Position numbers and translations under genes: made by a program | In this document: positions 17,856 to 56,454 of the stretch, piece by piece | Layout of the letters: every line of letters starts with the position of its first letter | How positions within the stretch are numbered: position 1 is the first letter of the stretch | The notes under the pieces: generated by a model | What the model was told of the DNA's origin: nothing | Database searches by the model: none | Seen by the model: the letters and a program-made list of their open reading frames with translations, nothing else | Origin: Actinomycetes bacterium | GTDB lineage: Bacteria > Actinomycetota > UBA4738 | Length of the DNA: 56,821 nt | Assembly (NCBI GenBank): GCA_021784765.1 | Contig: JAJYHN010000203.1 | Coordinates: 1-56,821 of the forward strand | Direction: 5' to 3'

Positions 17856-17960
17856 GGGTCTGCCTCCCAAACCGCGCCAGCCGGACTACCCTCGGAGGTG
17901 CGTTGGTCGATCACGGCGAGGATTCACGCTCGACTGGATGACGAGAGCGGGGTGGGTGAC

Positions 17961-24004: not shown

Positions 24005-24177
24005 GCCCGGGTCCCCGGGCACCTCGTCCCCCTCGTTCGCCCCTGCCCGCCTCCGCCCTCCCGGCCCGGGTCTTCCGGCGCATGGGAGCATGGTCGGCGT
24101 GGGCCGTGCGAACACGGCGCGTTCGACCGCGACGCGACTGGGTCGCGCGACCGCGCGAGCGAGCGAGGGGAACGAGG

Positions 24178-33342: not shown

Positions 33343-33356
33343 CCCGGTCGCGGCGA

Positions 33357-34169: not shown

Positions 34170-34286
34170 GTCCGGTCCCTCCCGGGCGCATCATGAAGCC
34201 CGCGTGCCCGGGAGTCCAGCGCCGCTGCGGACGACATGGCCCTGCGCGCCCCGGGGCCCGCGCTGCTCGGCGTGAACGTCGCGGCA

Positions 34287-39646: not shown

Positions 39647-42007
39647 TCAGCGAACCAGCCACGGGGTGATCGCCGTCCAGGTGCGCCCGCCGTCGCGGGT
39701 CTCGAACAGCGGAGGCGCCGTCGGGCCCGTGGCGTCGGTCCCCCGCTCCCAGGCGAAGCCCACGGTGGGGGTGACGAAGTCGAGGGCCCCGAACTGCTCC
39801 AGCCTGGACAGATCCGGGAGATTCGTGCGAACGCGCCGCCAGGTCGCGCCGCCGTCGCTCGTTTCGAGCAGGCCCCCGAGACCGTGGGGGGTCGCCCGTC
39901 CGAGCAGGAACCCGTGCTCGGCGTCCGGGAAGCTCACGTCCAGCGCCGTCGGCGAGGATGGCGCGACCTGTGAGGCCGGGAGCCCGGAGACCCTCCAGGT
40001 GCCGCCGGCATTGCGGGTGGCGAGCAGCGCCCAGTTTGGGGAGCCGGAGAGCAGGAGGATCTGCGCATCTCCGAGGCTCGCGACCGGCCACACGCCGCAG
40101 CCCTGCCCGCAGGAGGAGGCCGGAAGGGGCAGGGTGGCGGCCGACGAGGTCCAATGCAGCCCGGCGTCGTGGGTGGCGAACAGGTAGGGACCCCCGCCGT
40201 TGCAGTGGCCGGTCACCCAGCCGGTCGACGCGGTCGCGAACGACATCCCCGTCTTGTCGCACCCCAGGGGAAGTCCCCCGCTACCCCCGCCGGGTCTGCC
40301 GAGCGGCGGGGTGTGCGCGACGGGGGACCAGCGACGGCCGCCGTCGCTGGTCCGAAACACCGCGACCGCGTCCGACCCCATCGCCGCGCCGAGGTCGGCG
40401 AGCAGCCAGCCGTGCGAGGCATCGACGAAGGCCAGGTCGGTGGCCTGCCCGAGGGACCGGAACGGGCGCGAGGCGACCCAGGAGCCCCCGCCGTCGGCGG
40501 TCGAGAAGACCGTGGTCGCGGGCGGCCTCCCGGCATCGCTGCGCGTGACCGCGAGCCAGGCGTGGTCGGAGTCGAGCGCGAACAGCACGGCCCCGGCGTT
40601 CTGGGAGGCGAGCAGGGGACCGGCCGCGGGGGGCGTGAGAACCCTCCAGGTCCGGCCGCCGTCGGTCGTGCGAACGGGCTCGAGAGAGACCGGCGTGCTC
40701 GCGCCGGGATTCCCGCTCCACGCAAGGGCCCACCCGACGTCCGGGGTGACCATCCGCGTCGAGGAGAGCCAGACGGGCCCGATCGCGCCGGCCGGCGCCG
40801 GGCGGGGAGACGGAGCGGGGCACCCGCTCCCGGGGCAGGCGGGCACCGCGATCCGCGTCAGTGTCCGGGCGCCCGGGCTCGTCGCCCAGATCGCCCCGCC
40901 CCCGTAGGCGATCGAGAAGGTGCCGGGTCGGGCGGGCAGGGCCGCGATCACGCGACCCGTCGCCGGGTCGAGACGCAGGATCCGGCGGCCCGCGAGCGCC
41001 CACAGGCTGCCGCCACCGAACGCCAGGTCCTGCACCCTGGCGCCCACGGGCAGGATCGCCCGGACGCCCCCCGAGGAGGCGTCCACCCAAAGGATGCTGT
41101 TCCCCTCGCCGACCCAGACCGAGCCCGCGGCCGCCAGGATCCGGACGGAGCTGACCTCTCTCGGCGCCGCGACAGCCTGAAAGGCTCCGGTGTCGACCGA
41201 GATCCGCAGGAGCAGCGTCTTGGCGGCAGGCGCAGGCCCACCCGCCCGGACCACGACCCACACGGTGCCCGAGGTTTCCCCGAGCAGGCTCGTCGTGGTG
41301 ACCTCCCCGAGCGCCACGTCACCCACCACCCGAGCGCTTCGCGCGTCCAGGCGGGCCAGGGCGGGCCGGGTCCTGGAGACCGCGGTCGTCCACACCCCCG
41401 CCGGCCCGGCCGTCACGGCATCGCAGCAGGGGCGTGCCACGGTCAGGGAGGCAGCGACCCCGTTCGACCGAGGGTCGATGCGCTGGATCAGCTCGCGGGA
41501 GCCGGTCAGCGGGCGGACCACCCACACGCCGCCTGCGCCGACCGATGGCGGGAGCATCGCGACGTCGCTGGTGAGGGAGCCCGGGTCCGCCGGAAGCGGC
41601 GGGAGCGGCTCGCCTCTGATCGCGGCCAGGATGCGACCGGTCGCGAGGTCCACGCGCTCGAGCGTGGCTGCGGAGCCGGTCCGTCCGGAGGAGGTGCCGG
41701 CGGACGGCAGGGGGGTCAGGACCTGCACCCAGGCGCTTCCGTAGCCGGTGGTCACCCCGTAGACGGGGCCGGGCAGATGGATCACCTCGACCGCGGGCGC
41801 CGGCTGGTTCGCCGGCTCTACGCGCGCGTGGAACACCGCCGAGACCCAGGCCATCGCGCCGAGGAACGGCGCGATGGCCAGCACGGCGGCGGCCAGCCGG
41901 CGGTTCCGCCGCCGCCGGCGGACGCGCCGCTCGAGACGTTCCCATCGTTCGGCCGCCGGATGCCACTCGCGGGCGCGTCGCTCGAGCAGGTCGCGCAGCT
42001 CAGCCAT
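39647..42007 (-). CDS. Membrane-anchored protein with two extracytoplasmic beta-propeller-like halves (probable ECF anti-sigma/sensor partner)
   Basis: Short Arg-rich N-terminus and one TMS (LAAAVLAIAPFLGAMAWVSAV). Seven G-x-x-W repeats are followed by seven BNR/Asp-box repeats (e.g. TTDGGRTW, SDGGATW). Start overlaps the sigma gene stop by 8 nt. Confidence 0.75.
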   Translation of the reverse strand: MAELRDLLERRAREWHPAAERWERLERRVRRRRRNRRLAAAVLAIAPFLGAMAWVSAVFHARVEPANQPAPAVEVIHLPGPVYGVTTGYGSAWVQVLTPLPSAGTSSGRTGSAATLERVDLATGRILAAIRGEPLPPLPADPGSLTSDVAMLPPSVGAGGVWVVRPLTGSRELIQRIDPRSNGVAASLTVARPCCDAVTAGPAGVWTTAVSRTRPALARLDARSARVVGDVALGEVTTTSLLGETSGTVWVVVRAGGPAPAAKTLLLRISVDTGAFQAVAAPREVSSVRILAAAGSVWVGEGNSILWVDASSGGVRAILPVGARVQDLAFGGGSLWALAGRRILRLDPATGRVIAALPARPGTFSIAYGGGAIWATSPGARTLTRIAVPACPGSGCPAPSPRPAPAGAIGPVWLSSTRMVTPDVGWALAWSGNPGASTPVSLEPVRTTDGGRTWRVLTPPAAGPLLASQNAGAVLFALDSDHAWLAVTRSDAGRPPATTVFSTADGGGSWVASRPFRSLGQATDLAFVDASHGWLLADLGAAMGSDAVAVFRTSDGGRRWSPVAHTPPLGRPGGGSGGLPLGCDKTGMSFATASTGWVTGHCNGGGPYLFATHDAGLHWTSSAATLPLPASSCGQGCGVWPVASLGDAQILLLSGSPNWALLATRNAGGTWRVSGLPASQVAPSSPTALDVSFPDAEHGFLLGRATPHGLGGLLETSDGGATWRRVRTNLPDLSRLEQFGALDFVTPTVGFAWERGTDATGPTAPPLFETRDGGRTWTAITPWLVR

Positions 42008-42542
42008 CGTCGCCTCCGAACTGGGACCGGAGGCCCGCGCGGGCCCGGGAGATCCGCACCCGGACCGAGACGGGGGCGACCCCGAGGATCCTGCCGGCCT
42101 CCTCGTCGGTCATGCCGAGCCACTCGACCAGCACGAGGGCGGCCCGCTGGCCCGCCGGGAGCGCCCCGAGGGCGCGAGCGATCTGGTCTTTGACCTCGAG
42201 CGTCACCCCGGGATCCTGACCGCCGCCTCCGGGCTCGTCCTCCAGTCGTCGTCGAGCCCAGGCCGCGAGCCGGCGCAGGCGGCTCCGGTGCAGGTTCATC
42301 GCGGTTCGGTACAGGTAGCCGTCGGGGGAGCGCATCGTGCGAACCCGATCCCAGCGCTCGTAGAGTCGAAGGAATGCCTCCTGGGTCAGGTCCTCGGCAT
42401 CGTCGGCGTTGCCGCAGAGCAGGAACATGGCGCGCCCGAGTCGCTCGTACTCGTCCTCGAAGAAGTCGCGAAATTCCGGCGCCCACGCCGCGGCCTCACC
42501 GGTGGATGCTGCGTCCGGACCCAAGGTCATCACGTGCAGCAT
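42000..42542 (-). CDS. ECF-type RNA polymerase sigma factor
   Basis: DAEDLTQEAFLRLYERW (region 2) and LGMTDEEAGRILGVAPVSVRVRISRAR (region 4). Confidence 0.9.
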   Translation of the reverse strand: MLHVMTLGPDAASTGEAAAWAPEFRDFFEDEYERLGRAMFLLCGNADDAEDLTQEAFLRLYERWDRVRTMRSPDGYLYRTAMNLHRSRLRRLAAWARRRLEDEPGGGGQDPGVTLEVKDQIARALGALPAGQRAALVLVEWLGMTDEEAGRILGVAPVSVRVRISRARAGLRSQFGGDDG

Positions 42543-45011: not shown

Positions 45012-45734
45012 GTGAGACTGACCGATTTCGAGGCACTCAGCTTCGACTGCTACGGCACCCTCATCGACTGGGAAGCGGGCATCGCTGCGGTTCTCGGACC
45101 GTGGGCTCGCTCCCACGGCCTGACCGTGGACGATGAGACGCTGCTTGCCGCCTACGCCGACCACGAGGCGCGTGAGGAGGCCGACGACCCGCGAGCTCTC
45201 TACCCCGACATCCTGGCCCGCACCATGGTCGCGCTCGGACGGGAGTTCGGCGTCGAGGTCACCCCCGGGGAGGCGCAGCGCCTGGCGACCTCCGTCCCCG
45301 ACTGGCCCGCATTCGCCGACTCTCACGACGCCCTCATCTCGCTCGGCACCCGGTTCGCGCTGATCGTGCTGTCGAACGTCGACCGCGAGTCCTTCGCCGG
45401 AAGCAACCGCCGGCTGGCGGTGACGTTCGATGTCGTCCTCACCGCACAGGACATCGGCTCCTACAAGCCATCGGCGCGCAACTTCGCGGCCCTCCTTCGG
45501 GAGGCGGGCCGCCTCGGCATCGGCGAGGGCAGGCTGCTGCACGTCGCGCAGAGTCTCTTCCACGACCACGTCCCCGCCAAGAACGCCGGGCTGCCGACCG
45601 TCTGGATCAACCGCCGCCACGACCGGCCGGGCTGGGGGGCGACTCCCGCACCGCCCCTCGACGTCAGCCCTGACTGGGAGTTCCCGTCGCTGGCAGCGTT
45701 CGCCGCCGCCGTCGCCGAGGATCTCGATGGTTGA
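45012..45734 (+). CDS. HAD-superfamily hydrolase, haloacid dehalogenase type II-like
   Basis: FDCYGTLIDWE (motif I), VLSNVD and SYKPS motifs. GTG start. Confidence 0.85.
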   Translation: MRLTDFEALSFDCYGTLIDWEAGIAAVLGPWARSHGLTVDDETLLAAYADHEAREEADDPRALYPDILARTMVALGREFGVEVTPGEAQRLATSVPDWPAFADSHDALISLGTRFALIVLSNVDRESFAGSNRRLAVTFDVVLTAQDIGSYKPSARNFAALLREAGRLGIGEGRLLHVAQSLFHDHVPAKNAGLPTVWINRRHDRPGWGATPAPPLDVSPDWEFPSLAAFAAAVAEDLDG

Positions 45735-45776
45735 CGGGCAACGGCGGCCCTGCCGGCCGGCCAACCGGGGGCGCGA

Positions 45777-46139
45777 TCAGCCGGTCCCGGCGGCCTCGAG
45801 GACGGCCGCGACCACGCGAGCCGGATCGGCCATCGGGTTCGCGCTCACCGAGCGCAGCCAGGCCGATCCGCCGTGGTGGGCGAGCGAGACGAAGGCGCCG
45901 CGAATCCGCGATCGCACCTCGGTCGCGTCCAGCCCGCGGGGGCGCCAGAGGTAGATGCCGGTGCGCGGCGGGGCGTGGCGCTCGAGTCCGGGCTCCGCGC
46001 GGACCAGCCGGTCGAGCTCGACCGCGAGCGCGAGCCCCTGCTCGTCGACGTCGAAGTCGGCATCGGTGGAAGCCTGCGGGGCGTCCCTGCTCGCGAGCGC
46101 CCCGGGCCCGTCCGAGCGATCCACGGCCATGCCGGCCAT
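45777..46139 (-). CDS. Hypothetical protein divergent from hdrC
   Basis: About 120 aa with protein-like composition (DADFDVDEQGLALAVELDRLV...IYLWRPRGLD...). Start at 46139 or 46130. No family recognised. Confidence 0.4.
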   Translation of the reverse strand: MAGMAVDRSDGPGALASRDAPQASTDADFDVDEQGLALAVELDRLVRAEPGLERHAPPRTGIYLWRPRGLDATEVRSRIRGAFVSLAHHGGSAWLRSVSANPMADPARVVAAVLEAAGTG

Positions 46140-46274
46140 GGTCGCACGCCTCGGCCGCGGCGACGGACCCCCCCGGGGGGCGACTGCCCACAGGGCCCGG
46201 GTCCAACAGGGCCGATGGGCCTTGCGGGCGTCCCCGTCCCCCTGCAGGCTGCAGGAGGGAAGGGGGCAAGCCCC

Positions 46275-47000
46275 ATGACGCCGGATCCAGCGCATCGAAG
46301 CGAGGTCTCGGCGGACGTGCGCGCGAGGCGAGGGGGCCGCCGCCCTTATGGATTGCGTGGGGTCCTGCAGGAGTCACGGCTCGATCCGGGCTTCGCCGCC
46401 GAGATCGCGACGATCCCGGGCGGGGACAGGTTGCGCGAATGCATCGAGTGCGGCGCCTGCAGCGCGGTCTGTCCCCTGAGCGCCTACATGGACCACACGC
46501 CTCGGCGACTGATGGCGATGACGCAGGCCGGGTTGAGGGACGAGGTGCTGCGCAGCACGTCGATCTGGGTGTGCGCGTCCTGTTACGCGTGCACCGCCGT
46601 GTGCCCGAAGCAGATCCCGATCACCGAGGTCATGTACGCGTTGAAGCGGATGGCCGTCCGGGAGGGGACGTTCCCGAAGCGTTTCGCGACGCCGGTCCTG
46701 GCACGCGAGTTCGTCGGGTCGGTCGACCGCTGGGGTCGCAACACCGAATCGCGGCTCGCGGCGAGCCTCTACCTGAAGACCCACCCGGGGCTGCTGCTGA
46801 AGGACGGCTGGCTCGCGCAGCGTCTCATGCGACGGGGCCGGATGAGTCTCGTGCGCGAGTCCATCCGGCAGCGGGCCAAGCTCGGGCGGATGTTGCGTGC
46901 GGCCGAGACGTCACCTCCTCGCGCCGTCGTGTCGAGCGCCTCGCCGTCGTCCTCCTCGCGGCCGCGGGCTTCGGCAATCAGCGGGGAGGGACCCCGATGA
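46275..47000 (+). CDS. hdrC: Heterodisulfide reductase subunit C-like (2x[4Fe-4S])
   Basis: CIECGACSAVCP and CASCYACTAVCP motifs. Start is uncertain: ATG 46275, or later GTG/TTG, since GC3 is low over the first approx. 27 codons. ATGA overlap with hdrB. Confidence 0.85.
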   Translation: MTPDPAHRSEVSADVRARRGGRRPYGLRGVLQESRLDPGFAAEIATIPGGDRLRECIECGACSAVCPLSAYMDHTPRRLMAMTQAGLRDEVLRSTSIWVCASCYACTAVCPKQIPITEVMYALKRMAVREGTFPKRFATPVLAREFVGSVDRWGRNTESRLAASLYLKTHPGLLLKDGWLAQRLMRRGRMSLVRESIRQRAKLGRMLRAAETSPPRAVVSSASPSSSSRPRASAISGEGPR

Positions 47001-47908
47001 GATACGCGTACTTCCCCGGCTGCTCCCTGAAGGGCAGCTCGAAGGCGTACGAGGAGTCCCTTCTCGCCGTCTTCGACACCCTGGGCGAGGGCCTCGACGA
47101 GCTGGATGACTGGAATTGCTGCGGGGCCACCGCATACTTCGCGATCGACGAGGCCAAGGCGTATGCGCTCGCTGCCCGCAACCTGGCCCTGGCCGAAGAT
47201 CAGGCCGGGAACGACGCGCCCGTGGATCTCGTGGCTCCCTGCGCCGGCTGCTACATGATGCTGCTGAAGGCGGAGCGCCGCCTGAGCGAACAGCAGTCGA
47301 TTCGAGGGAGGATCGACGGCGCGCTGCAGGCCGGGGGACTCAGCTACCGCGGCCGGGCGCGGGCGCGCCACCCCCTCGACGTGCTGGTGAACGACATCGG
47401 GCTCGAGCGCATCGCCGACGCCGTCACTCGGCCGCTCGGCGGTCTCAGGGTTGCCTGCTACTACGGGTGCCTCCTCGTGCGCCCCCACGCCACCTTCGAC
47501 GACCAGTACAGCCCGACCTCGATGGATCGGCTGATGCGCACGATCGGAGCCGAGCCCGTCGACTGGCCCTTGAAGGTGCGGTGCTGCGGGGGCTCCTGCT
47601 GCGGCGGCCCCCTCGTCGGGACGATCCGGGAAGCCGGCCTGCGGCTCATCCACGACCTGCTGAAGGAGGCGAAGTCGCGCGGGGCGGACGTCCTCGCGAC
47701 GGCCTGCCCGCTGTGCCAGTTCAACCTCGAGTGCTTCCAGGAGCGCGTGACCCGGGAGTTCGGGGAGCCGGTCGAGCTCACCGTCGGCTTCTTCACGCAG
47801 CTTCTCGGACTCGCGCTGGGGCTGGACGAGCGGAGGCTCGGGATCCACCGGATGCTGAGATGGCGGCTGCCGGAGCTTGAGCCCGCGGCGGCCGGGGGGG
47901 CACCGTGA
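46997..47908 (+). CDS. hdrB: Heterodisulfide reductase subunit B-like (two CCG domains)
   Basis: YFPGCSL...WNCCGAT...CAGC and YYGCLL...RCCGG...CPLCQ. SD GGGGAGGG. Confidence 0.9.
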   Translation: MRYAYFPGCSLKGSSKAYEESLLAVFDTLGEGLDELDDWNCCGATAYFAIDEAKAYALAARNLALAEDQAGNDAPVDLVAPCAGCYMMLLKAERRLSEQQSIRGRIDGALQAGGLSYRGRARARHPLDVLVNDIGLERIADAVTRPLGGLRVACYYGCLLVRPHATFDDQYSPTSMDRLMRTIGAEPVDWPLKVRCCGGSCCGGPLVGTIREAGLRLIHDLLKEAKSRGADVLATACPLCQFNLECFQERVTREFGEPVELTVGFFTQLLGLALGLDERRLGIHRMLRWRLPELEPAAAGGAP

Positions 47909-50900
47909 GGGCTGACGGCGACGGGTCGGCGACGCAGGAGCAGCCGCCGGATGGGGTGCCGAAGATCGGCGTCTACGTCTGCCACTGCGGCCTGAACATC
48001 GCCGGAAAGGTGGACGTCGAACGCGTCGTCGAGTTCGCCGCCACGCTCCCGGGCGTCACCGTCGCGCGCGACTACACGTTCATGTGCTCGGATCCGGGCC
48101 AGGGCCTGATCGAGCGGGACATCCGCGAGGGCCTGGTGAACCGCGTCGTCGTCGCGTCGTGCTCGCCGCTCATGCACGAGGTGACCTTTCGGCGCGCGAC
48201 GGCGGCCGGCGGGATCAGTCCCTTCTACTTTCAGATGGCCAGCATCCGCGAGCACGTCAGCTGGGTCACGGACGACAGCGAGGATGCGACCGCGAAGGCG
48301 AAGGCGCTCGTCGCCGGGGCGGTGCGCCGCGTTGCGGCCAACGAACTCCTCGACCGGCGCGAGGTTCCGGTGCACCCGGACGTGCTCGTCGTCGGCGGCG
48401 GGATCGCCGGGATCCACGCAGCGCTGACGCTGGCCGGGGCCGGGAAGCGCGTCTACCTGGTGGAGCGGGAGCCTTCCATCGGCGGCCACATGGCGCAGTT
48501 CGACAAGACCTTCCCGACGCTCGACTGCGCCGCCTGCATCCTCACCCCGAAGATGGTGCAGGTCGGCCAGCACCCCTCGATCGAGCTCCTCACCTACAGC
48601 GAGGTCGAGGAGGTTTCGGGGTACGTCGGCAACTTCACGGTCAAGGTACGCAGGAAGCCCCGCTACATCGACGCGGACCTCTGCAACGGCTGCGGCCTCT
48701 GCGTCGAGACGTGCTCCTGGCGGGGGGTCCCTTCGGAGTTCGACGAAGGCTTGGGCACCCGGCCCGTCGTCTACATGTCCTTCCCTCAGGCGGTGCCGCG
48801 CCTGCCGGTCATCGACCGCGCGGGCACCTCGCCGTGCACGTTCAACTGTCCGGCCGGGATCAAGGCCCACGGCTACGTGTCGCTCGTCCGGGGCGGCCGG
48901 TACGAGGAGGCCTTCAACCTCGTGCGGCAGGCGACCCCCCTGGTCGGAAGCCTGGGCTATGCCTGCTACGCGCCCTGCGAGGACGCCTGCTCACGGGGAC
49001 GCCTGGAGGGGGCGCTGCCCATCCGCAGGCTGAAGCGCTTCGTCGCCGACACCCTCTACGGGGTCGGTCCCGCCCCGGCGCCGACACCCGCCGAGCCGAC
49101 CGGCAAGCGGGTCGCCGTGATCGGCTCGGGGCCGGCCGGGCTGACCGCCGCCTGGCAGCTCGCCGTCAGGGGACATCAGGTCACGATCTTCGAGGCCGCG
49201 CCGGAGCCGGGCGGGATGCTGCGCGTGGCGATCCCCGCCTACCGGCTGCCCACCCCGATCGTGGACGCCGACATCGAGAGCGTCACCGCCCTCGGGGTCG
49301 AGATCGTGACCTCCACTCGCGTGGAGGATCTCGAGGAGCTGCGCCGGCTCGGCTACGACGCCATCCTGGTGGCCACGGGCACGCATCGCTCGGTGAGGTT
49401 GGGGGTGGAGGGCGAGGAGCTGCCCGGGGTTCTCACCGCGCTCGATTTCCTGCGGTCGGTCAAGCTCGGAGAGCCGGTCGATCTGCGGGGCAAGGTCGTG
49501 GCGGTCGTCGGCGGGGGCAACGTGGCGATCGACGCCGCGCGCAGCGCGCTCCGACTGGCCGCGACCGGGGTCCACCTGGTGAGCCTGGAGGCCCGGCAGG
49601 AGATGCCGGCCTACTCCTGGGAGGTGGACGAGGCGGTCGCCGAAGGGGTGCTCCTGCACAACTCCTGGGGGGTGCTCCGGTTCGACGGCGAGGGGAGCGT
49701 GCGCCGGGTGGAGCTCAAGCGGTGCACTGCCGTGTTCGACGCGCAGGGCCGGTTCAACCCCCAGTACGACGAGAGCGTCGTGCAGGACCTCGACTGCGGC
49801 GCGGTGATCGCCGCCGTGGGCATGACCGCCGACGCCGGCGGGTTCGCTCCGCCCCTTCTCACCGGTCGGGCCGGGACCATCGAGGCGGACCCCGAGACGC
49901 TGCAGACCCCGCTCGCCCACGTCTTCGTGGCGGGCGACGTGGTCACCGGCCCATCGACCATCGCCCAGGCCGCCGGGCAGGGGCGGCGGGCCGCCTTCAT
50001 GATCGATCGCTACCTCGCGGGGCGCGAGCTGGACGCGGCCGAGTTCGCCAGGGTCCTGCCGGCCGTGGACGCTGCCGAGGTGCTCGCCCGGCCGCGGAGC
50101 CCGGGCCGCCGGGAGCCGCTGGCGCCGGCCAGCCGGGTCGTCGCGGCGCCGAGCGACTTCGCGCCCACCGAGCCGCCGCTCGGCGAGGAGGAGGCGCGCT
50201 CCAGCGCCGAGCGCTGCCTCGACTGCGGCGTCTGCTCGGAGTGCGGGCAGTGCGTCGCCGTCTGCCCGACCCACGCGGTGGACCTCCAGATGCCCGAGCG
50301 GGAGGTGGAGCTGCAGGTGGGCACGATCATCGTGGCCACCGGCTACAAGCCCTTCGATGCCGCCCGCATCCCCGAGTACGGCTACGGCAGGTACCCGAAC
50401 GTCTACACGAGCCTCGAGGTCGAGCGACTCGCCAACGCCTCGGGCCCCACCCAGGGCGAGATCGTCATGCGGGACGGGCGGCGCCCGGGCTCGGTCGGGA
50501 TCATCCACTGCGTCGGATCGCGGGACGCCCGGTTCAACGCCTACTGCTCCCGCGTGTGCTGCATGTACTCCCTGAAGCTCGCCCACCTGATCAAGGAGCG
50601 GTCCGGAGCCGAGGTCTACAACTTCTACATCGACATGCGCACTCCGGGGAAGGGCTACGAGGAGTTCTACACGAGGATCCTGAAGGAGGGGATGCACCTC
50701 ATCCGCGGGCGCGTGGCGGAGGTGACCGACTGGGCGGCGGTGCCGGAGGAAGAGGGCAAGCTCGTCGTCCAGGTGGAGGACACGCTGGTCGGGGCCGTGC
50801 GACGGATCCCACTGGACATGGTGGTGCTCGCGGTGGGCCTGGAGCCGCAGTCCGATGCCGAGAGCGTCCGCCGAACCTTCAACATCAGCTGCGGCACCGA

Positions 50901-51312
50901 GGGATTCTTCACCGAGCGGCACCCGAAGCTCGCCCCGGTGTCCACGTTCACCGACGGGGTGTTCCTGGCGGGCGCGTGCCAGGGCCCGAAGGACATACCC
51001 GACAGCGTGGCGCAGGCGGGCGCCGCCGCCGCGGAGGCGCTGGTCCTGGTCGATCGCGGCGCCGTCGAACTGGAGCCGAGCACCGCCTTCATCGACCCGG
51101 CCGCCTGCTCGGGCTGCCGCACGTGCGTGGGGCTCTGCCCGTTCAACGCGATCACCTTCGACGCCGAGCGGGGCGTGGCGACCGTGAACGAGGTCCTCTG
51201 CAAGGGATGTGGGACCTGTGTCGCGGCCTGCCCGTCAGGGGCCGCGCAGCAGCACCTGTTCACTGACGCGCAGATCCTCGCCGAGATCGAGGGGGTGTTG
51301 GCGCGTGCCTGA
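47905..51312 (+). CDS. hdrA: HdrA-like flavoprotein with nested NfnB/GltD-type NAD(P)H:FAD oxidoreductase module (1135 aa)
   Basis: HdrA N-domain (VYVCHCGLNIAG), FAD site VLVVGGGIAGI...LDCAACILTP, YCSRVCCMYSLK, and a C-terminal 2x CxxCxxCxxxCP. Residues approx. 305-770 match GltD/NfnB (CPAGI...CYAPCEDACSRG, VAVIGSGPAGL, VVGGGNVAIDAAR, VFVAGDVV). Confidence 0.9.
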   Translation: MRADGDGSATQEQPPDGVPKIGVYVCHCGLNIAGKVDVERVVEFAATLPGVTVARDYTFMCSDPGQGLIERDIREGLVNRVVVASCSPLMHEVTFRRATAAGGISPFYFQMASIREHVSWVTDDSEDATAKAKALVAGAVRRVAANELLDRREVPVHPDVLVVGGGIAGIHAALTLAGAGKRVYLVEREPSIGGHMAQFDKTFPTLDCAACILTPKMVQVGQHPSIELLTYSEVEEVSGYVGNFTVKVRRKPRYIDADLCNGCGLCVETCSWRGVPSEFDEGLGTRPVVYMSFPQAVPRLPVIDRAGTSPCTFNCPAGIKAHGYVSLVRGGRYEEAFNLVRQATPLVGSLGYACYAPCEDACSRGRLEGALPIRRLKRFVADTLYGVGPAPAPTPAEPTGKRVAVIGSGPAGLTAAWQLAVRGHQVTIFEAAPEPGGMLRVAIPAYRLPTPIVDADIESVTALGVEIVTSTRVEDLEELRRLGYDAILVATGTHRSVRLGVEGEELPGVLTALDFLRSVKLGEPVDLRGKVVAVVGGGNVAIDAARSALRLAATGVHLVSLEARQEMPAYSWEVDEAVAEGVLLHNSWGVLRFDGEGSVRRVELKRCTAVFDAQGRFNPQYDESVVQDLDCGAVIAAVGMTADAGGFAPPLLTGRAGTIEADPETLQTPLAHVFVAGDVVTGPSTIAQAAGQGRRAAFMIDRYLAGRELDAAEFARVLPAVDAAEVLARPRSPGRREPLAPASRVVAAPSDFAPTEPPLGEEEARSSAERCLDCGVCSECGQCVAVCPTHAVDLQMPEREVELQVGTIIVATGYKPFDAARIPEYGYGRYPNVYTSLEVERLANASGPTQGEIVMRDGRRPGSVGIIHCVGSRDARFNAYCSRVCCMYSLKLAHLIKERSGAEVYNFYIDMRTPGKGYEEFYTRILKEGMHLIRGRVAEVTDWAAVPEEEGKLVVQVEDTLVGAVRRIPLDMVVLAVGLEPQSDAESVRRTFNISCGTEGFFTERHPKLAPVSTFTDGVFLAGACQGPKDIPDSVAQAGAAAAEALVLVDRGAVELEPSTAFIDPAACSGCRTCVGLCPFNAITFDAERGVATVNEVLCKGCGTCVAACPSGAAQQHLFTDAQILAEIEGVLARA

Positions 51313-51829
51313 GGCCGAGCTCGAGCGCCGCTTCGACCCCAGGATCGTGGCCTTCTTCTGCAACTGGTGCACCTACACGGCGGCCGACCTTGCCGGGATC
51401 TCCCGGATGGAGTACCCACCTGGGGTGCGCATCGTCCGCCTGATGTGCTCGGGCCGGGTAGACCCCCAGTTCGTTCTCGCCGCCTTCCGGCACGGCGCCG
51501 ACGGCGTCCTCATCGGCGGATGCCACCCCGGCGACTGTCACTACCAAGAGGGCAACTACAAGGCCCGCCGCCGCTTCGAGCTGCTGCGGATGCTCCTGCG
51601 GGACATGGGCATCGAGGGGGAGCGGCTGCGCCTGGAGTGGATCTCGGCGTCCGAGGGCGACAAGGTGGCGCGCGTGTGCAACGAGATGACCGAGCAGATC
51701 CGAGCGCTCGGGCCGCTCAGGCTCCGTGCGGCGCCGCCGCGCGCCGGGCGTCCGTCGGCGCGCGAGGCGGCCGGAGAGGGCGCGGGGGAGCCGGTGGTGG
51801 AGGAGCCGGTGGGGGAGGCGGCCCGATGA
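51305..51829 (+). CDS. mvhD: MvhD-like [2Fe-2S] hydrogenase delta subunit
   Basis: IVAFFCNWCTYTAADLAG...LMCSGRV...GCHPGDCHY. GTG at 51305 overlaps hdrA by 8 nt. Confidence 0.9.
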   Translation: MPEAELERRFDPRIVAFFCNWCTYTAADLAGISRMEYPPGVRIVRLMCSGRVDPQFVLAAFRHGADGVLIGGCHPGDCHYQEGNYKARRRFELLRMLLRDMGIEGERLRLEWISASEGDKVARVCNEMTEQIRALGPLRLRAAPPRAGRPSAREAAGEGAGEPVVEEPVGEAAR

Positions 51830-52818
51830 GCAAGCCGAAGGTCGCGTTCTACTGGGGGGCCTCGTGCGGGGGCTGCGAGGAGGCCGTGGTCGACCTGGCC
51901 GAGGACCTGCTCTCGGTCGTGGAGCGGGTGGACATCGCCTTCTGGCCGGTGGCCCTCGACTTCAAGCGGGCCGATGTGGAGGCGCTGGCCGACGGCGAGC
52001 TGGCCGCGTCGTTCATCAACGGCTCGGTCCGCACGTCCGAGCAGGCGGAGATGGCCGAGCTCCTGCGCCGCAAGTCGCAGGTGGTCATCGCCTTCGGAAG
52101 CTGCGCCCAGCTCGGCGGAGTCCCCGGGCTCGCGAACCTCCACAGCCGCGAGGCGATCCTGGAGTGCGTCTACCAGGAGGCGCCCAGCCTGGTCAACGAG
52201 GAGCGCACCGTCCCCCAGCTGGCGACCCACGTCCCCGAGGGTCGGGTGACGCTCCCGAGCCTCCTGGACTCGGTGCGCACCCTGGACCAGACCATCGAGG
52301 TCGACTACTACCTGCCCGGCTGTCCCCCGCCCGTGCCCCTCATCGGCGCGGCCGTCACGGCCCTGGTGGAGGGGAAGCTGCCTGCGAGGGGAGCGGTGCT
52401 CGCCCCGGACGTCGCGCTGTGCGCGGAGTGCCCGCGCTCGGCGACCAAGCCGGAGAGGCTGCTCGTGAAGGGCTTCCACCGGACGCACGAGGTGGTGGCC
52501 GACCCCGAAGTGTGCCTGCTCGCCCAGGGCCTGCTGTGCCTCGGCCCGGCGACCCGGGGCGGCTGCGGCGCGAGCTGCATCGGGGGGAACATGCCGTGCA
52601 CCGGCTGCATGGGCCCAACCAGCAGGGTCCTCGACTACGGCGCCAAGGCGCTGTCCGCGATCGGTTCGCTGCTGGACTCCAACGACGAGGAGGAGATCGC
52701 CGCCCTCGCCGGCGAGATCGTCGACCCCGTCGGCACGTTCTACCGCTACAGCCTGCCGGCATCCCTGCTGCACCGCCGCGCGGAGCCGGCCTCGCGGGCG
52801 GGAGGCTCCTCATCATGA
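51826..52818 (+). CDS. mvhG: [NiFe] hydrogenase small subunit, MvhG-like
   Basis: ASCGGCEEAV, GSCAQLGGVPG, LPGCPP and a CIGGNMPCTGCMGP cluster of Cys motifs. ATGA overlap with mvhD. Confidence 0.9.
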   Translation: MSKPKVAFYWGASCGGCEEAVVDLAEDLLSVVERVDIAFWPVALDFKRADVEALADGELAASFINGSVRTSEQAEMAELLRRKSQVVIAFGSCAQLGGVPGLANLHSREAILECVYQEAPSLVNEERTVPQLATHVPEGRVTLPSLLDSVRTLDQTIEVDYYLPGCPPPVPLIGAAVTALVEGKLPARGAVLAPDVALCAECPRSATKPERLLVKGFHRTHEVVADPEVCLLAQGLLCLGPATRGGCGASCIGGNMPCTGCMGPTSRVLDYGAKALSAIGSLLDSNDEEEIAALAGEIVDPVGTFYRYSLPASLLHRRAEPASRAGGSSS

Positions 52819-54278
52819 GCCGCGAGATCGTCATCGACCCAATCACCCGGCTGGAAGGCCACGGCAAGATCCACGTCTTCCTCGACGACGCCGGCGATGT
52901 CGACCGCGCATATCTCCAGATCCCGGAGCTCAGGGGATTCGAGAAGTTCGCCCAGGGACGCCGCGCTGAGGACATGCCGCAGATCACGTCGCGCATCTGC
53001 GGGGTTTGCCCGATGGCACACCACATGGCCGCAACGAAGGCCCTGGACGACCTGTTCAAGGTCGACCCCCCGGCGGCCGCGAAGAAGATCCGGGAGCTCG
53101 TCTACAGCGCGTTCATGTTCGAGGATCATGCGCTCCACTTCTTCTTCCTGGGCGGGCCCGACTTCCTCGTCGGCCCGGCGGCGCCGAAGGCCGAGCGGAA
53201 CATCCTGGGCGTCATCGGCAGGGTCGGGCTGGAAGTCGGCAAGGAGGTCATCGGGGTTCGTCAGCAGCTCCGCGCGCTGATCGGGCAGACCGCGGGCAAG
53301 GTCATCCACCCCGTGTTCGGGCTCCCGGGCGGCCTGTCGCGCCCGCTCGACCCCGAGCTCCAGCAGGAGTTCGCCGCCGCGGCGGCCCGAGCGGTGGAGT
53401 TCGGCAAGTTCGCTCTCGGCGTGTTCCGGGACGTCGTCCTCCGCACGCCCGAGTTCGTCGAGATGGTCACCGCGGAGGCCTACACGCACCGCACGTACTG
53501 CATGGGCCTGGTGGATCAGGCGGACAAGGTGACCTTCTACGAGGGGACGCTCCGGGTGGTGGACCCCGAGGGCCGGGAGTTCCTCCGCTGCGATCCCAGG
53601 GAGTACCTGGCCCACATCGCGGAGCACGTGGAGCCGTGGAGCTACATGAAGTTCACGTTCCTCAAGGAAGTCGGGTGGAAGGGGTTCACCGACGGGATGG
53701 AGAGCGGTGTCTACAGCGTCGCGCCGTTGGCACGGCTGAATGCCTCCGAAGGGATGGCCACCTCCTTCGCGGAGGAGGCCTACGAGGAGTTGGTCTCGAC
53801 CCTGGGCGGCAAGCCCGTGCACCACACCCTCGCCAACCACTGGGCCCGGATCATCGAGCTGGTGTACGCCGCGGAGCGGATGGCCGAGCTCGCGGCCGAT
53901 CCGGAGATCCTGGACTCCCAGGTCCGCACGCTGCCGACGGCCGTGCCGGTGGAGGGGATCGGTGTGGTCGAGGCGCCGCGGGGGACGCTGATCCACCACT
54001 ACTGCACCGACTCCCGAGGGCTCATCACCAGGGCCAACCTCATCGTGGCAACCCAGAACAACGCGGCCCGGATCGCGATGTCGGTGGACAAGGCCGCCCG
54101 CGCCCTGATCAAGGGCGGCGAGGTCGACGACGCTCTCCTGAACCAGGTCGAGATGGCCTTCCGCGCGTACGACCCGTGCCTCGGTTGCGCCACCCACAGC
54201 CTGCCCGGGCAGATGCCGCTCATCATCGCGATCCACGATCCAGGGGGCGGGGTCGTGCGGGAGATCCGTCGGGACTGA
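52815..54278 (+). CDS. mvhA: [NiFe] hydrogenase large subunit, MvhA-like (group 3-type)
   Basis: RLEGHG, the L1 motif RICGVCPMAHH and the L2 motif DPCLGCATH, followed by a 26-aa C-terminal extension. ATGA overlap with mvhG. Confidence 0.92.
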   Translation: MSREIVIDPITRLEGHGKIHVFLDDAGDVDRAYLQIPELRGFEKFAQGRRAEDMPQITSRICGVCPMAHHMAATKALDDLFKVDPPAAAKKIRELVYSAFMFEDHALHFFFLGGPDFLVGPAAPKAERNILGVIGRVGLEVGKEVIGVRQQLRALIGQTAGKVIHPVFGLPGGLSRPLDPELQQEFAAAAARAVEFGKFALGVFRDVVLRTPEFVEMVTAEAYTHRTYCMGLVDQADKVTFYEGTLRVVDPEGREFLRCDPREYLAHIAEHVEPWSYMKFTFLKEVGWKGFTDGMESGVYSVAPLARLNASEGMATSFAEEAYEELVSTLGGKPVHHTLANHWARIIELVYAAERMAELAADPEILDSQVRTLPTAVPVEGIGVVEAPRGTLIHHYCTDSRGLITRANLIVATQNNAARIAMSVDKAARALIKGGEVDDALLNQVEMAFRAYDPCLGCATHSLPGQMPLIIAIHDPGGGVVREIRRD

Positions 54279-54280
54279 CG

Positions 54281-54847
54281 ATGCGCACGCTGATTCTCGG
54301 GCTGGGGAACGAGCTGGCCGGCGACGACGCCGCGGGACTGCTGGTGGCCCGGGCACTGCGGGAGGAGCTGGCCGGTCGGGCCGACGTGGTGGAGAGTTCG
54401 CTGTCGGGCCTCGCTCTACTGGAGATCTTCGTGGGGTACGACCGCGCCGTCGTCGTCGATTCGGTTCGGACCGGCAGAAACCCTCCTGGCACGATCACGG
54501 AGCTGGCGCTGGCCGATGTCGGACGGGTGTCGGCGCCGAGCCTCCATCACACGGGGCTCCCTGAGGTGGCCGCCATGGCCGAGCGGCTCGGGCTGCGGTT
54601 CCCCGCCGAGACTCGGGTTCTCGCCCTCGAGGTCGTGGATCCCTACACCATCGGGGCGGAACTGAGCGAGCCGGTCGCGGCCACGCTCGGCCCGCTCGCT
54701 CGAAGGGTTCGCGACCAGGTCGAGCGCTGGGCGGAGCAGGACGGTGCTCGGGCCCGACGGCGGGCCGACGGCACGCGAAGGATCGGGGCACGCGGGGAAC
54801 GGTCGTGCACGACTACGGCGCCGTCCGAACCCTCGTCGAGCGGCTGA
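54281..54847 (+). CDS. Hydrogenase maturation endopeptidase (HycI/HybD/FrhD family)
   Basis: ILGLGNELAGDDAAG, VVVDSV, SLHHTG. Starts 2 nt after the mvhA stop. Confidence 0.85.
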   Translation: MRTLILGLGNELAGDDAAGLLVARALREELAGRADVVESSLSGLALLEIFVGYDRAVVVDSVRTGRNPPGTITELALADVGRVSAPSLHHTGLPEVAAMAERLGLRFPAETRVLALEVVDPYTIGAELSEPVAATLGPLARRVRDQVERWAEQDGARARRRADGTRRIGARGERSCTTTAPSEPSSSG

Positions 54848-55118
54848 CGGCGCCCGTTCGTGACGGCCCCGGCGCTGCAGCCGGGCCGGGTTCCACCACC
54901 ACACAGGTCATGGTGCGCTCGACCCCGGCCTGCCCCTGGATGTCCCGGAGGACCGATGCGGCGAGGTGATCGAGGTCCGAGGCCTCCACCTGCGCGATGA
55001 CGTCGTAGGGGCCGACCGTCTGTTCGGCCGAGCGCGCTCCCTTGCGCTTGGCAAGCGAGGTGGCGACTTCCGGGGCCCTGCCGACCCCGGTCAGGATGAG
55101 GACGTAGGCGCGAACCAC
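54813..55118 (-). CDS. Stand-alone Lrp/AsnC ligand-binding (RAM) domain protein
   Basis: VVRAYVLILTGVG...VGPYDVIAQVEASDLDHL...IQGQAGVERTMTCVVV. GTG at 55118 is preceded by GGAGGTGGG. No HTH domain. Confidence 0.6.
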   Translation of the reverse strand: MVRAYVLILTGVGRAPEVATSLAKRKGARSAEQTVGPYDVIAQVEASDLDHLAASVLRDIQGQAGVERTMTCVVVEPGPAAAPGPSRTGAVSRSTRVRTAP

Positions 55119-55307
55119 ACTCCCACCTCCGTGCTCGTAGGCTCCACTCGCCACGATGGGCCCATGCGAGCGGGAGGGAAGGTCCGAACGGCCCGGGACC
55201 GCCGGGCATTCGAGCCCAGCGGGGAGATGGTGGCTGCAGTCGGTGTCTCACTTCAGCCCGACAGACAGGGTTGCGACGGGGGAGGCGCATCGAGCCGATC
55301 TCCTGAC

Positions 55308-55325
55308 GAGGGTGGAACCACCCTC
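55308..55325 (-). terminator. Hairpin GAGGGTGG-AA-CCACCCTC
   Basis: Perfect 8-bp stem 15 nt downstream of the BNR-repeat gene stop (minus strand). Confidence 0.4.
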
Positions 55326-55339
55326 ATACAAGGCTCGGC

Positions 55340-56454
55340 CTACTCGGAAGGCGGCTGGTCAGGGCTCCAGGTCTGCCCGCCGTCGGTGGTCTTCAGCACC
55401 CGGGACGCCGAGCCGCAGCCGGTCTTGAAGCCGGTGCACCGGTGGGTCTCGACCAGGGCCCACCCGACCTTGGGCGAGACGAACGCGATGCGAGGGAACC
55501 CCGCGAGGGCCGGGTTGGCGGCCACCGTTGACCAGGTGGCACCACCGTCGGCGGTGAGGTAGACCGTGCCCGTGGGGGCGACCACGAGCCAGTCCACGGG
55601 GGTGGCGAACGCGACCCCCGGCATGCCGGTGTTCTGGAAGCTCGGGTCGTGCAGCGTGCCGGCGACCGCCCAGGTCGCACCACCGTCGGCGGTCGTGTAG
55701 AAGGCGATGTCCTCCAGGGGGGTCCCGTAGGCGGCGAGCCCGGCGGCCATCACGCCGACCTTGGGGCCGAAGAAGGTGGGAAGGGACACCGGAAGGACCA
55801 GGTCCCCACTGTCCGCCGCAGGGACCGGGAGGGTGGAGGGCTGCCAGCTCGCTCCCCCGTCGTGGGTCAGGGCGAGGCGCTCGGGGTAGACGCCCTCGAG
55901 CGCCCAGCCGGTCTGCGGGCCCACGAACTCGATCGGGCCGGCGAAGGGCCCCGAGCCAAGGCTCGTCCAGCTCGCCCCACCGTCGGTGGTCCCGTACAGG
56001 TCCGCCTGCGTCCCGGCCGCTCCGCCCGCCGGGGTCTGGACCGTCATCCAGCCGTGGCGCGGGTCCACGAAGCTGAGGTGCACGCCCCCGAACCCGTTCG
56101 GGTACTGGGTGGGGAGCACGCTCGTCTGCCAGGTCACCCCGCCGTCGGCCGTCCAGGCGATCTCGATCTTGCTGCAGCCGGTTCCCTGGGCCTCGGCCAC
56201 CCAAGCGTGGGCGGGGTCCAGACCCACACCTCACCGGGGGCTGCCGCGCCGAGGGAGGTGATCGTCGCCGTGGGTCCCGGAGGCGCGGAGGGACTCGGCG
56301 TCGCAGAGGCGCTCGGTCCGGCAGCCGGGCCGGCGCTCGGGCTGCGCGACGCGGCGGCCGACCAGAGCCCCGCGACGAGCCCGGCGACCAGGACGAGGCC
56401 CGTGATCCCCGCCCCGACCCGCCGCCTGCGCTCCCTCCTTCGAACGATGTCCAT
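55340..56454 (-). pseudogene. Membrane-anchored BNR/Asp-box repeat protein split by a frameshift near 56225-56240
   Basis: The frame starting at ATG 56454 gives an Arg-rich N-terminus, a TMS (ITGLVLVAGLVAGLW) and a Pro/Ser linker, then degenerates. The adjacent frame opens right after a TGA and carries six Asp-box repeats (TADGGVTW, TTDGGASW ...). Confidence 0.65.

Follow-up and report, generated by a model that had tools for sequence, protein, structure and literature searches.

Which substrates does a methanogen-like complex of hydrogenase and heterodisulfide reductase serve in an actinobacterial cell? The question is raised by a 56,821-nt contig of an Actinomycetes bacterium of the lineage UBA4738 (JAJYHN010000203.1, assembly GCA_021784765.1; its whole length is called the window below). 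In this contig, genes for the heterodisulfide reductase subunits HdrC, HdrB and HdrA are followed by genes for the [NiFe]-hydrogenase subunits MvhD, MvhG and MvhA and for a hydrogenase maturation protease. An actinobacterial host is not expected to make coenzyme M (CoM) or coenzyme B (CoB), and no genes for the synthesis of either were found in the 56.8-kb window. The operon is one more representative of a known, widespread and biochemically uncharacterised family of bacterial Hdr-linked hydrogenases with an HdrL-type HdrA. We think it reasonably probable that it encodes a soluble, cytoplasmic, electron-bifurcating H2:disulfide and NAD(P)/ferredoxin oxidoreductase, a bacterial type of Mvh-Hdr complex. 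The substrates of bacterial Hdr-Mvh systems have been an open question since the systems were first noticed. The locus offers an intact, all-cysteine, seven-gene example, with no selenocysteine, from Actinomycetota.

The seven genes are consecutive plus-strand open reading frames (ORFs) at positions 46275-54847, in the order hdrC, hdrB, hdrA, mvhD, mvhG, mvhA and protease gene (Table 1), and are presumably co-transcribed. A preliminary description of this DNA, made from the sequence alone, had reported them as coupled, and every junction was reproduced at the sequence level. The hdrC/hdrB junction is ATGA (46997-47000) and the hdrB/hdrA junction GTGA (47905-47908). The hdrA stop and the mvhD start lie in GTGCCTGA, with an 8-nt overlap (51305-51312). 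ATGA recurs at mvhD/mvhG (51826-51829) and mvhG/mvhA (52815-52818), and mvhA is separated from the protease gene by a 2-nt gap (TGAcgATG, 54276-54283). The same gene starts were called independently on other assemblies, where hdrC also encodes 241 aa (contigs L086 and L087). The 3′ end of the protease gene overlaps a convergent AsnC-type gene (54813-55154, minus strand), a gene pair also called on contigs L001 and L002. Neither Rfam models nor a tRNA scan gave a match anywhere in the window, so that no riboswitch or other RNA element is seen at the operon. A promoter and terminator scan of 45500-55400 found none, such a scan being uninformative at 72% GC.

The diagnostic motifs listed earlier for the six structural subunits were all confirmed as intact. 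In HdrC, the [4Fe-4S] motif CxxCxxCxxxCP occurs twice (residues 56 and 100), and the C-terminal tail is of low complexity. HdrB holds two cysteine sets (C9/C41C42/C82xxC85 and C158/C196C197/C237xxC240) and aligns over its full length, CCG cysteines included, with methanogen HdrB (8rvv_B, 160 bits; 5odc_B, 141 bits). At HdrB residues 196-205 (window 47582-47611) the second CCG domain reads RCCGGSCCGG, the CC pair being doubled relative to the CCGA--GG of methanogens. MvhD has six cysteines and a low-complexity C-terminal tail, and by homology it is the [2Fe-2S] electron-transfer subunit that joins the hydrogenase to HdrA. In MvhA, the L1 motif is RICGVCPMAHH at residue 60 and the L2 motif AYDPCLGCATH at 451-461 (DPCLGCATH from 453). 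The C-terminal tail of MvhA aligns with those of 7t2r_D and 9sw2_F and is the expected substrate of the maturation endopeptidase, by which it would be cleaved.

Among the seven products, only the maturation endopeptidase passed its curated NCBIfam cut-off. The scores of the other models, in bits against their cut-offs, were 817 against 1100 for HdrA2, 182 against 345 for HdrB (TIGR03288), 79 against 160 for HdrC (TIGR03290), 365 against 800 for VhuA, 198 against 450 for VhuG and 147 against 215 for VhuD. By these scores the six structural subunits are homologues, not functional equivalogs, of the subunits of CoB-CoM heterodisulfide reductase and Vhu hydrogenase.

HdrA is 1135 aa long, not about 650 aa, and includes an NfnB/GltD-like module of about 470 aa that the preliminary description had missed. 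The NCBIfam HdrA models, HdrA2 included, match in two stretches that leave out residues ~300-770, and the GltD/NfnB-type model PRK12771 matches residues 307-807 with 473 bits. With residues 301-759 deleted (the insert minus its last few residues), HdrA is collinear with methanogen HdrA (8rvu_a, 737 bits; 5odc_A, 695 bits, residues 19-673 against 4-650). The module enters HdrA between FPQAVP and the second of the two cysteine motifs in the inserted ferredoxin domain, so that it separates the first motif (C260-C270) from the second (C777-C787). The insert has seven cysteines for two [4Fe-4S] clusters (C311, C315, C354, C358, C362, C771 and C774), a flavin adenine dinucleotide (FAD) site with GSGPAG at 407 and R447 in the place of NfnB Arg187, and an NAD(P) site. 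Its best matches in the PDB were the GltD-like domain of NfnA from NfnABC (9n5u_A, 305 bits) and the corresponding chain of NfnABC from C. saccharolyticus (9bov_A, 300 bits), followed by StnC (8oh5_C, 292 bits) and Thermotoga NfnB (4ylf_B, 210 bits). An AlphaFold2 model of HdrA built with 68 homologues had a mean predicted local distance difference test (pLDDT) score of 85.7, mostly above 90 in the insert, and a predicted template modelling (pTM) score of 0.77; the insert is confidently predicted as a folded NfnB-like domain. Foldseek recognised in this model both the HdrA fold, with a template modelling score TM(target) of 0.83-0.89, and the NfnB/NfnI-L fold, with TM(target) of 0.75-0.80 and a root-mean-square deviation of ~3 Å. 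Because HdrA carries this NAD(P)-binding module, a pyridine nucleotide is a probable extra substrate of HdrA.

The ligands of both parts of the protein are conserved in an alignment of 119 long HdrA homologues. Each Fe-S cysteine of HdrA, the seven of the insert included (119/119 for these), is kept in at least 116 of them, K891 (equivalent to Lys409, the FAD N5 contact in 5ODC) in 117, and R447 in 118, the last corresponding to the Arg187 that stands at N5 of the NfnB flavin (PMC6405883). The GSGPAG and GGGN motifs of the insert are invariant or nearly so. C208 and C211, the counterparts of C194 and C197 of solved HdrA, are also conserved, and HdrA therefore has the requirements for the usual HdrA dimer. 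At the C-terminal end of the insert, C771 and C774 (RCLDCG, window 50215-50226) are invariant in all 119 and align with the RC(L/M)xCG of StnC and NfnA. By the ligand pattern of DPD/GltD proteins they would presumably be the first CxxC among the ligands of the module's two [4Fe-4S] clusters, and this ligand pair would then follow the domain in the sequence. In a tree of the HdrA core, which carries no support values and allows no inference on a single gain of the insert, long and short forms were interleaved.

The nucleotide site of the insert departs from the family pattern. After GGGNxAxDxAR, 109 of the 119 long HdrA proteins have YRR(G/S/T)R and the other ten (S/C)-(L/I)-E. The ten include the window, where SLEAR replaces the NADPH-type YRR arginines, and its four closest relatives (P0002-P0005, 74-77% identical), all five reading S-L-E-(A/S)-R. 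The (S/C)-L-E variant was also found in L084, L036, L011, L034 and L039, these being loci of the survey described below. In NfnB, the 2′-phosphate of NADP is bound by two conserved arginines (PMC6405883). Their equation with the YRR arginines is our own mapping. Under the Rossmann-fold rule, a change of these arginines to leucine and glutamate is read as a preference for NAD(H), and the replacement of YRR by SLE thus suggests that the insert prefers NAD(H) over NADP(H). Since GGGNVAIDAAR is intact, the site appears changed in preference rather than lost. This natural switch predicts an H2-dependent, disulfide-coupled reduction of NAD+, not of NADP+.

The insert is also variable among close strains and paralogues. 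The window and L087 agree at 98-100% identity over hdrC, hdrB and the part of HdrA up to residue 360. Protein identity falls to 85%, and about 12% of nucleotides differ, at 49000-49608 (HdrA residues ~361-567), with SLEAR present in both. L087 ends at window position 49608 and L086 at 48888. In this FAD/NAD region of the insert the pattern resembles a mosaic at strain level, a recombination hotspot or the product of co-assembled strains. In a metagenome-assembled genome (MAG) of Pseudonocardiaceae, L036 encodes two HdrA units in tandem in one protein of about 1500 aa (10001-14535), and neither mvh nor hdrBC genes lie within 10 kb of it. The insert of this protein, with VSLESR, is 65% identical to that of the window; in L023 the orthologous insert reaches only 54% identity, against 77-82% for the HdrA core, a hint that the NfnB-like module has moved between HdrA paralogues.

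Table 1. Features of the operon and of its surroundings in the window.
Feature	Position	Strand	Length, domains and remarks
hdrC-like gene	46275-47000	+	241 aa; Pfam Fer4_8/9/17 (Fer4 dicluster)
hdrB-like gene	46997-47908	+	303 aa; Pfam CCG x2; putative disulfide-reducing site
hdrA, long form (HdrL/HdrA-NfnB type)	47905-51312	+	1135 aa; Pfam FAD, Fer4, Fer4_20, Pyr_redox_2
Inserted NfnB/GltD-like module	48802-50214	+	HdrA residues ~300-770; Fer4_20 at 308-383, Pyr_redox_2 at 402-693
Nucleotide-binding stretch	49510-49605	+	GGGNVAIDAAR...VHLVSLEARQEMPA; SLEAR in place of family YRR(G/S/T)R
mvhD	51305-51829	+	174 aa; Pfam FlpD positions 1-123/123, 193 bits
mvhG, [NiFe]-hydrogenase small subunit	51826-52818	+	330 aa, 13 Cys; Pfam Oxidored_q6; Mvh-type C-terminal Fe-S domain
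mvhA, [NiFe]-hydrogenase large subunit	52815-54278	+	487 aa; Pfam NiFeSe_Hases
MvhA C-terminal extension	54198-54275	+	26 residues past His461, SLPGQMPLIIAIHDPGGGVVREIRRD
Hydrogenase maturation endopeptidase	54281-54847	+	188 aa; Pfam HycI; TIGR00072 91.6 bits vs cut-off 47.45
zf-HC2 anti-sigma gene	409-663		next to sigma-70 fragment
BldC-like gene	1083-1283		HTH_17/MerR
WhiB gene	2972-3235	-	domain scan
PAC2 gene	22169-24022	-	

The class of the hydrogenase could not be read from bit scores alone. Against MvhA, the NiFe-HydL of A. mobile (7t2r_D) scored 375 bits, MvhA (5odc_F) 357, Vhu-type subunits 346 and HoxH of group 3d (5xf9_D) 321, a range that is ambiguous as to class; solved enzymes of groups 3a and 3b scored 90-130 bits. 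The L1 and L2 motifs fit ICGxCxxxH and AYDPCxxCATH (PMC6085437), but they are also close to the 3d reference motifs and are weak discriminators. A neighbour-joining tree with 200 bootstraps was built from 55 sequences, namely the window, 44 Hdr-linked large subunits (two identical to that of the window), four subunits from PDB alignments and six second hydrogenases. Five second hydrogenases from the loci, at 27-29% identity and only presumed to be 3b-like, formed the outgroup. Window MvhA fell in a bacterial Hdr-linked clade found in all 200 replicates and, within it, in a subclade of Actinomycetes (window, L003, L023, L048, L083 and L084; 197/200). It lay outside both the presumed 3b outgroup and the clade of HoxH and A. 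mobile HydL (199/200). Archaeal Mvh and Vhu grouped together in 197/200. The deep order, for which references were few, joined bacterial with archaeal sequences in 12/200 and archaeal sequences with 3d in 162/200.

The small subunit adds to this picture. MvhG aligns with 5odc_E over residues 5-315 (226 bits), and A. mobile HydS and 3d HoxY match only its N-terminal 187 aa (80 and 67 bits). Group 3d (Hox) and NiFe-HydABCSL enzymes are marked by a short small subunit and by diaphorase subunits of the NuoE/F type, and no NuoE/F-like gene is present here. Since the small subunit is of the long MvhG type and MvhD and HdrABC are encoded in the same operon, the hydrogenase can safely be called Mvh-type and Hdr-linked on homology. 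As to the earlier assignment of MvhA to group 3c, the part that stands is its separation from the 3b and 3d references within a bacterial Hdr-linked clade; its placement relative to archaeal Mvh and 3d is not settled by the tree. In the sense of HydDB, MvhA is likely a group 3c enzyme.

The closest solved counterpart of the whole assembly is the methanogen MvhAGD-HdrABC complex (5ODC, 8RVU, 9SW2), with the same six subunits, here co-encoded in one overlapping gene string. The subunits align over their full lengths, and L1/L2, CCG, the lysine at FAD N5, the equivalents of Cys194/Cys197 and the long small subunit are shared. The window differs in the 470-aa NAD(P)-flavoprotein insert of HdrA, in its actinobacterial host, in the position of MvhA in a separate bacterial clade, in the missed NCBIfam equivalog cut-offs, and in the order hdrCBA-mvhDGA in one operon with its own protease gene.

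For the long HdrA, there are precedents in bacteria and archaea. The name HdrL dates from 2009 and was given to a large HdrA of Desulfobacterium autotrophicum that is fused to an NADH-binding part resembling glutamate synthase; its gene is followed by mvhD (PMC2702500). In Syntrophobacter fumaroxidans growing on sulfate, HdrABC/HdrL proteins are abundantly produced and were read as confurcating (PMC5947623). The window shares with both the large HdrA with a GltD-like NAD(P)H-binding part and mvhD directly downstream. Loci assigned to Desulfobacterales and Syntrophobacterales in our survey (L008, L013, L018-L024 and L041) hold homologues with the insert at the same place. These loci, however, are without mvhG and mvhA and include further HdrA paralogues, FdhB-like or Dsr genes, and many are selenoproteins, whereas the long HdrA of the window uses cysteine throughout and belongs to a complete hydrogenase and HdrBC operon. 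In anaerobic methanotrophic archaea of the ANME-1 group, HdrA9-11 have an NfnB-like insertion of ~500 aa in the inserted ferredoxin domain, and confurcation of NADPH with CoM-SH/CoB-SH has been proposed for them (PMC9012536). The insertion position is shared with the window, a likeness that we draw from the published description and not from sequence. Unlike the window, ANME-1 HdrA9/10/11 come from archaeal methane-oxidising hosts with CoM/CoB metabolism and have not been reported with MvhAG.

As a separate protein, the module corresponds to NfnB (4YLF, 5JCA), NfnA of NfnABC (9N5U) and StnC (8OH5), with which it has in common the fold, the motifs for FAD and for the nucleotide, the cysteines of the Fe-S clusters and the arginine of YRLP. 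Unlike these, it is not a separate subunit, has no NfnA-type partner, places the first CxxC pair after the module (C771, C774) and carries SLE. The sHdr systems have HdrB/HdrC-like subunits of the CCG and ferredoxin types and an HdrA-like flavoprotein in common with the operon, but no hydrogenase; they are marked by a short sHdrA, by LbpA, DsrE and TusA neighbours and by duplicated hdrB/hdrC. Window HdrA scored 685-728 bits against methanogen HdrA and 160 bits, over residues 805-1048 only, against 6tjr_A, which we take to be sHdrA, presumably a protein of ~350 aa. The operon had earlier been said not to be of the sHdr type; this agrees with its long methanogen-type HdrA and with the lack of LbpA, DsrE and TusA in the window ORFs scanned.

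The cassette had been presented as unusual, but it is widespread in bacterial MAGs, several of Actinomycetota among them, and the clustering of hdr with group 3c hydrogenase genes had already been published in 2009-2017 (PMC2702500, PMC5317091). Clusters of hdr, group 3c hydrogenase and maturation protease genes are known from Caldithrix abyssi, Thermoanaerobaculum aquaticum and Ca. Acetothermum autotrophicum, where their "functions are yet unknown" (PMC5317091). Actinobacteria assemblies have been reported to hold group 3c hydrogenases and, separately, mvhD/hdrABC clusters (PMC7325909), and about one quarter of the complete genomes encoding Mvh were bacterial in a 2018 survey (PMC6085437). 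A literature search for Actinobacteriota together with MvhADG and HdrABC returned nothing relevant.

We surveyed one genome per GTDB species and obtained at least 80 loci. By tblastn with the seven window proteins, the order hdrC-hdrB-hdrA-mvhD-mvhG-mvhA was found in more than 40 of them, with the protease gene following wherever the contig reaches that far. The MAGs that carry the cassette belong to more than 12 groups, including Actinomycetes, Chloroflexota, Zixibacteria, Terriglobia/Acidobacteriota, Elusimicrobia, Ignavibacteria, Bacteroidota, Omnitrophota, WOR-3, Bipolaricaulota/Acetothermia, Myxococcales, Calditrichaceae, Sumerlaeia and Firmicutes. A long HdrA within the full cassette was found in L003 and L023 (Actinomycetes), L005, L009, L012, L014, L015, L026 and L031, and also in L083 and L084. 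Of these, L026 (Calditrichaceae) and L014 and L031 (Acetothermia/Bipolaricaulota) correspond to the published bacterial clusters; the window differs from the latter in its WhiB-bearing lineage of 72% GC, its SLE variant and the lack of adjacent hyp genes. Short HdrA proteins occur in L045-L082, including the Actinomycetes loci L047 and L048. A protein search with HdrA gave 8000 matches below 1e-50, and the best 120 were nearly all 1100-1170 aa long. Those of the best 120 with names were labelled "heterodisulfide reductase subunit A" or "FAD-dependent oxidoreductase", and their sources included MAGs of Solirubrobacteraceae and Streptosporangiaceae (68-69% identity). Such generic labels hide a probable link of H2 metabolism to pyridine nucleotides in soil and sediment bacteria.

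From these comparisons a path for electrons can be proposed. H2 would be split at the Ni-Fe site of MvhA, and electrons would pass through three MvhG clusters and the [2Fe-2S] cluster of MvhD to the Fe-S clusters and FAD of HdrA, with K891 at the flavin N5. There the electron pair would be bifurcated. The high-potential electron would travel through the two [4Fe-4S] clusters of HdrC and the two CCG-bound clusters of HdrB to a low-molecular-weight or protein disulfide. These steps rest on the full-length homology to solved Mvh-Hdr complexes and on the intact ligands. The low-potential electron would leave through the inserted ferredoxin domain of HdrA, an exit reportedly described in a 2017 structure paper. 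The NfnB-like module, which brings a nucleotide site, FAD and two [4Fe-4S] clusters, would give NAD(P)(H) its own way out of or into the complex, with or without ferredoxin as a partner; given the replacement of YRR by SLE, NAD+ is the probable acceptor or donor. In sum, NAD(P)H and/or reduced ferredoxin may be formed from low-pressure H2 at the expense of disulfide reduction, and the reaction may be reversible. For the disulfide, the preliminary description had given only speculative candidates, mycothiol disulfide among them, and no conserved substrate-related neighbour from which it could be deduced occurs in the window or in the related loci, where only hyp genes, regulators and unrelated genes recur. 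No paper linking Mvh and Hdr complexes to mycothiol was found in a literature search.

The energetics of such a reaction depend on the H2 pressure. The standard redox potentials are about -414 mV for H+/H2, about -320 mV for NAD+ and about -450 to -500 mV for ferredoxin. By our own reasoning, at the low H2 pressure of soils and sediments the H2 couple would lie above the NAD couple, and coupling to an exergonic disulfide reduction would be useful. Ferredoxin may be reduced in addition to NAD+.

Several points weigh against a bifurcating H2:disulfide and NAD(P)/ferredoxin oxidoreductase. At high H2 pressure, by the same reasoning, the reductions of NAD+ and of the disulfide would both be exergonic, and bifurcation onto NAD+ would be sensible only at low H2 or with ferredoxin also reduced. 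The conserved arginine at the flavin N5 of the insert also characterises the FAD at which NfnB bifurcates, and the insert might itself act as a further site of bifurcation or as an entry point. None of the structural subunits reached the NCBIfam cut-off of a methanogen equivalog, so that substrate identity is not transferable. The window holds no hyp genes, no ferredoxin and no candidate disulfide carrier. The PDB chain search gave no chain combining HdrA with the insert, and the literature search gave no biochemical data for bacterial Mvh-Hdr complexes and no biochemical or structural data for HdrL-type proteins.

Among the alternatives, a redox valve running in the reverse direction is possible, if unlikely. 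Here NAD(P)H would enter at the insert and be joined by a second donor, either reduced ferredoxin or a thiol pair; in hypoxia or fermentation their electrons would be confurcated to protons and released as H2. Group 3 hydrogenases are described as bidirectional in the HydDB table, the confurcating readings of S. fumaroxidans HdrABC/HdrL and of ANME-1 HdrA-NfnB mentioned above are precedents, and in the related locus L083 a cNMP-binding (Crp/Fnr-type) regulator is encoded directly upstream. No sequence feature, however, indicates the direction. Moreover, H2 formation from thiols and NAD(P)H would be uphill unless ferredoxin is a co-donor, in which case the HdrBC arm would have no obvious role.

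A more specific form of the forward reaction seems doubtful to us. In this form, the fused, NADH-adapted module would itself be the low-potential outlet, and low-pressure H2 would reduce NAD+ (uphill) and an actinobacterial disulfide, for example mycothiol disulfide or a protein disulfide (downhill), which would make the complex a distinct enzyme class. If so, soil Actinomycetota would be able to draw on trace H2 for NADH and for the maintenance of their thiol redox state without ferredoxin.

The canonical, methanogen-like scheme, in which H2 reduces only free ferredoxin and a heterodisulfide, had been the starting point of the preliminary description. Given the NAD(P) module in HdrA, it is probably incomplete. 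As a full account, with an insert that is tolerated or regulatory and has no substrate site, we consider it improbable. The core subunits and their ligands do match the methanogen enzyme, and the short-HdrA loci (L045-L082, with L048 among the Actinomycetes) keep the cassette without the insert, so that the cassette can work without it. The near-invariance of the Fe-S cysteines, GSGPAG, GGGN and flavin-N5 arginine of the insert across the 119 homologues is, however, unexpected for a passenger domain; the insert is also predicted to fold with high confidence, and no ferredoxin gene was seen in the window ORFs scanned.

Less probable still are two bifurcating flavins. The FAD of the NfnB-like module, with R447 at N5, would then be a second site in a four-substrate machine of H2, NAD(P)H, ferredoxin and disulfide. 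This idea has been raised for ANME-1 and is in line with the conservation of the flavin-N5 arginine noted above. However, in the closest solved relatives, NfnA of NfnABC and StnC, bifurcation is assigned to another subunit (PMC12018979), and yet they keep YRLP. There is also no NfnA-type small subunit to accept the second electron.

The host and the integrity of the contig bear on whether the operon is real. The preliminary description had inferred an actinobacterial-type genome from flanking WhiB, BldC-like, anti-sigma/sigma and PAC2 genes. All of these were found by domain scan (Table 1), and the 72% GC of the window and a housekeeping transaldolase/glucose-6-phosphate isomerase (Tal-Pgi) whose best named relatives are from Actinomycetota MAGs (70%) agree with this host. 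GC is uniform along the window (0.70-0.76 in 2-kb bins); horizontal acquisition of the operon, judged by composition, was rejected on this ground. The upstream junction (a 409-aa gene, a 240-aa gene, a remnant ORF and hdrC) is repeated in two contigs, one from ENA and one from a different assembly at NCBI, and the downstream junction (protease, AsnC-type gene and BNR protein) in two ENA contigs, of which L001 also has the sigma-70 gene. Records related to this genome are GCA_027392635.1 at NCBI and ERZ27233562 and ERZ27236914 at ENA. The possibility of a chimeric contig, raised in the preliminary description, was thus checked against independent assemblies, in which both junctions recur. Compared with near-identical strains, MvhA has seven synonymous and no nonsynonymous differences, HdrC and HdrB three and none; differences in the protease gene are mostly synonymous, and mvhD and mvhG have a few nonsynonymous ones. 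These patterns indicate purifying selection on the operon. Because both junctions recur and the strain differences are mostly synonymous, the operon is neither a chimera nor decaying.

It had also been stated that the window lacks hypA-F, ferredoxin, lipoate-binding protein, DsrE and TusA genes, and in the ORFs scanned no Hyp, stand-alone ferredoxin, lipoate-binding (LbpA), DsrE or TusA domain was found. In L084 (HdrA 74% identical, SLE-type) the same seven genes are followed by hypA and a divergent hypE-hypD-hypC-hypC-hypF block, and in L083 (HdrA 72% identical) hypA and hypC follow the protease gene. Since hyp genes adjoin the operon in these close relatives, their absence here is a local peculiarity of the window. 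An artefact, whether from a chimera, from mis-binning of the contig or from an operon in decay and without function, might be suspected from the MAG-type contig, the missing hyp genes and the strain-level heterogeneity in hdrA where two short contigs break, but it is scarcely credible in view of the uniform GC, the recurring junctions (upstream in ENA and NCBI assemblies, downstream in two ENA assemblies), the lack of frameshifts and stops, the intact ligands and the mostly synonymous substitutions.

Other features of the window were noted. Divergent from hdrC, a 120-aa ORF (45777-46139, minus strand) is what an in-frame deletion of ~954 bp has left of a gene for a 438-aa PLP-dependent decarboxylase (PF00282). 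The gene is intact on the ENA contig L086 (2503-3819), with flanks 99.9% identical, and the NCBI contig L087 shares the deletion. The two BLAST segments of the remnant overlap by 15 nt at 46015-46029, which suggests that the deletion arose between short direct repeats.

A flavodoxin-like gene (Flavodoxin_5) is seemingly split over two frames on the plus strand (37493-37618 and 37599-38012; N-terminal part MNEKRVLVAYASKGGST) and may be either a frameshift pseudogene or an assembly error. A stretch of ~940 bp at 33343-34286 has only two overlapping antisense ORFs, 33357-33908 (minus strand) and 33391-33756 (plus strand). The plus-strand frame 33343-33756 had no Pfam match (the minus-strand ORF 33357-33908 was not scanned), and the stretch may either lack coding sequence or contain a gene that has escaped recognition.

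Two similar gene pairs, each of an extracytoplasmic function (ECF)-type sigma-70 factor followed by a BNR/Ycf48-like repeat protein, were found on the minus strand at 39647-42542, ~4 kb upstream of the operon, and at 55340-56227, just downstream of it; the coordinates on L001 are 3888-5718. Finally, the Tal-Pgi protein mentioned above is a fusion of 882 aa, and its gene is followed by a 6-phosphogluconolactonase gene (17952-21307, plus strand). After the Actinomycetota MAGs, its nearest named relatives are from Chloroflexi/Dehalococcoidia (~60%).

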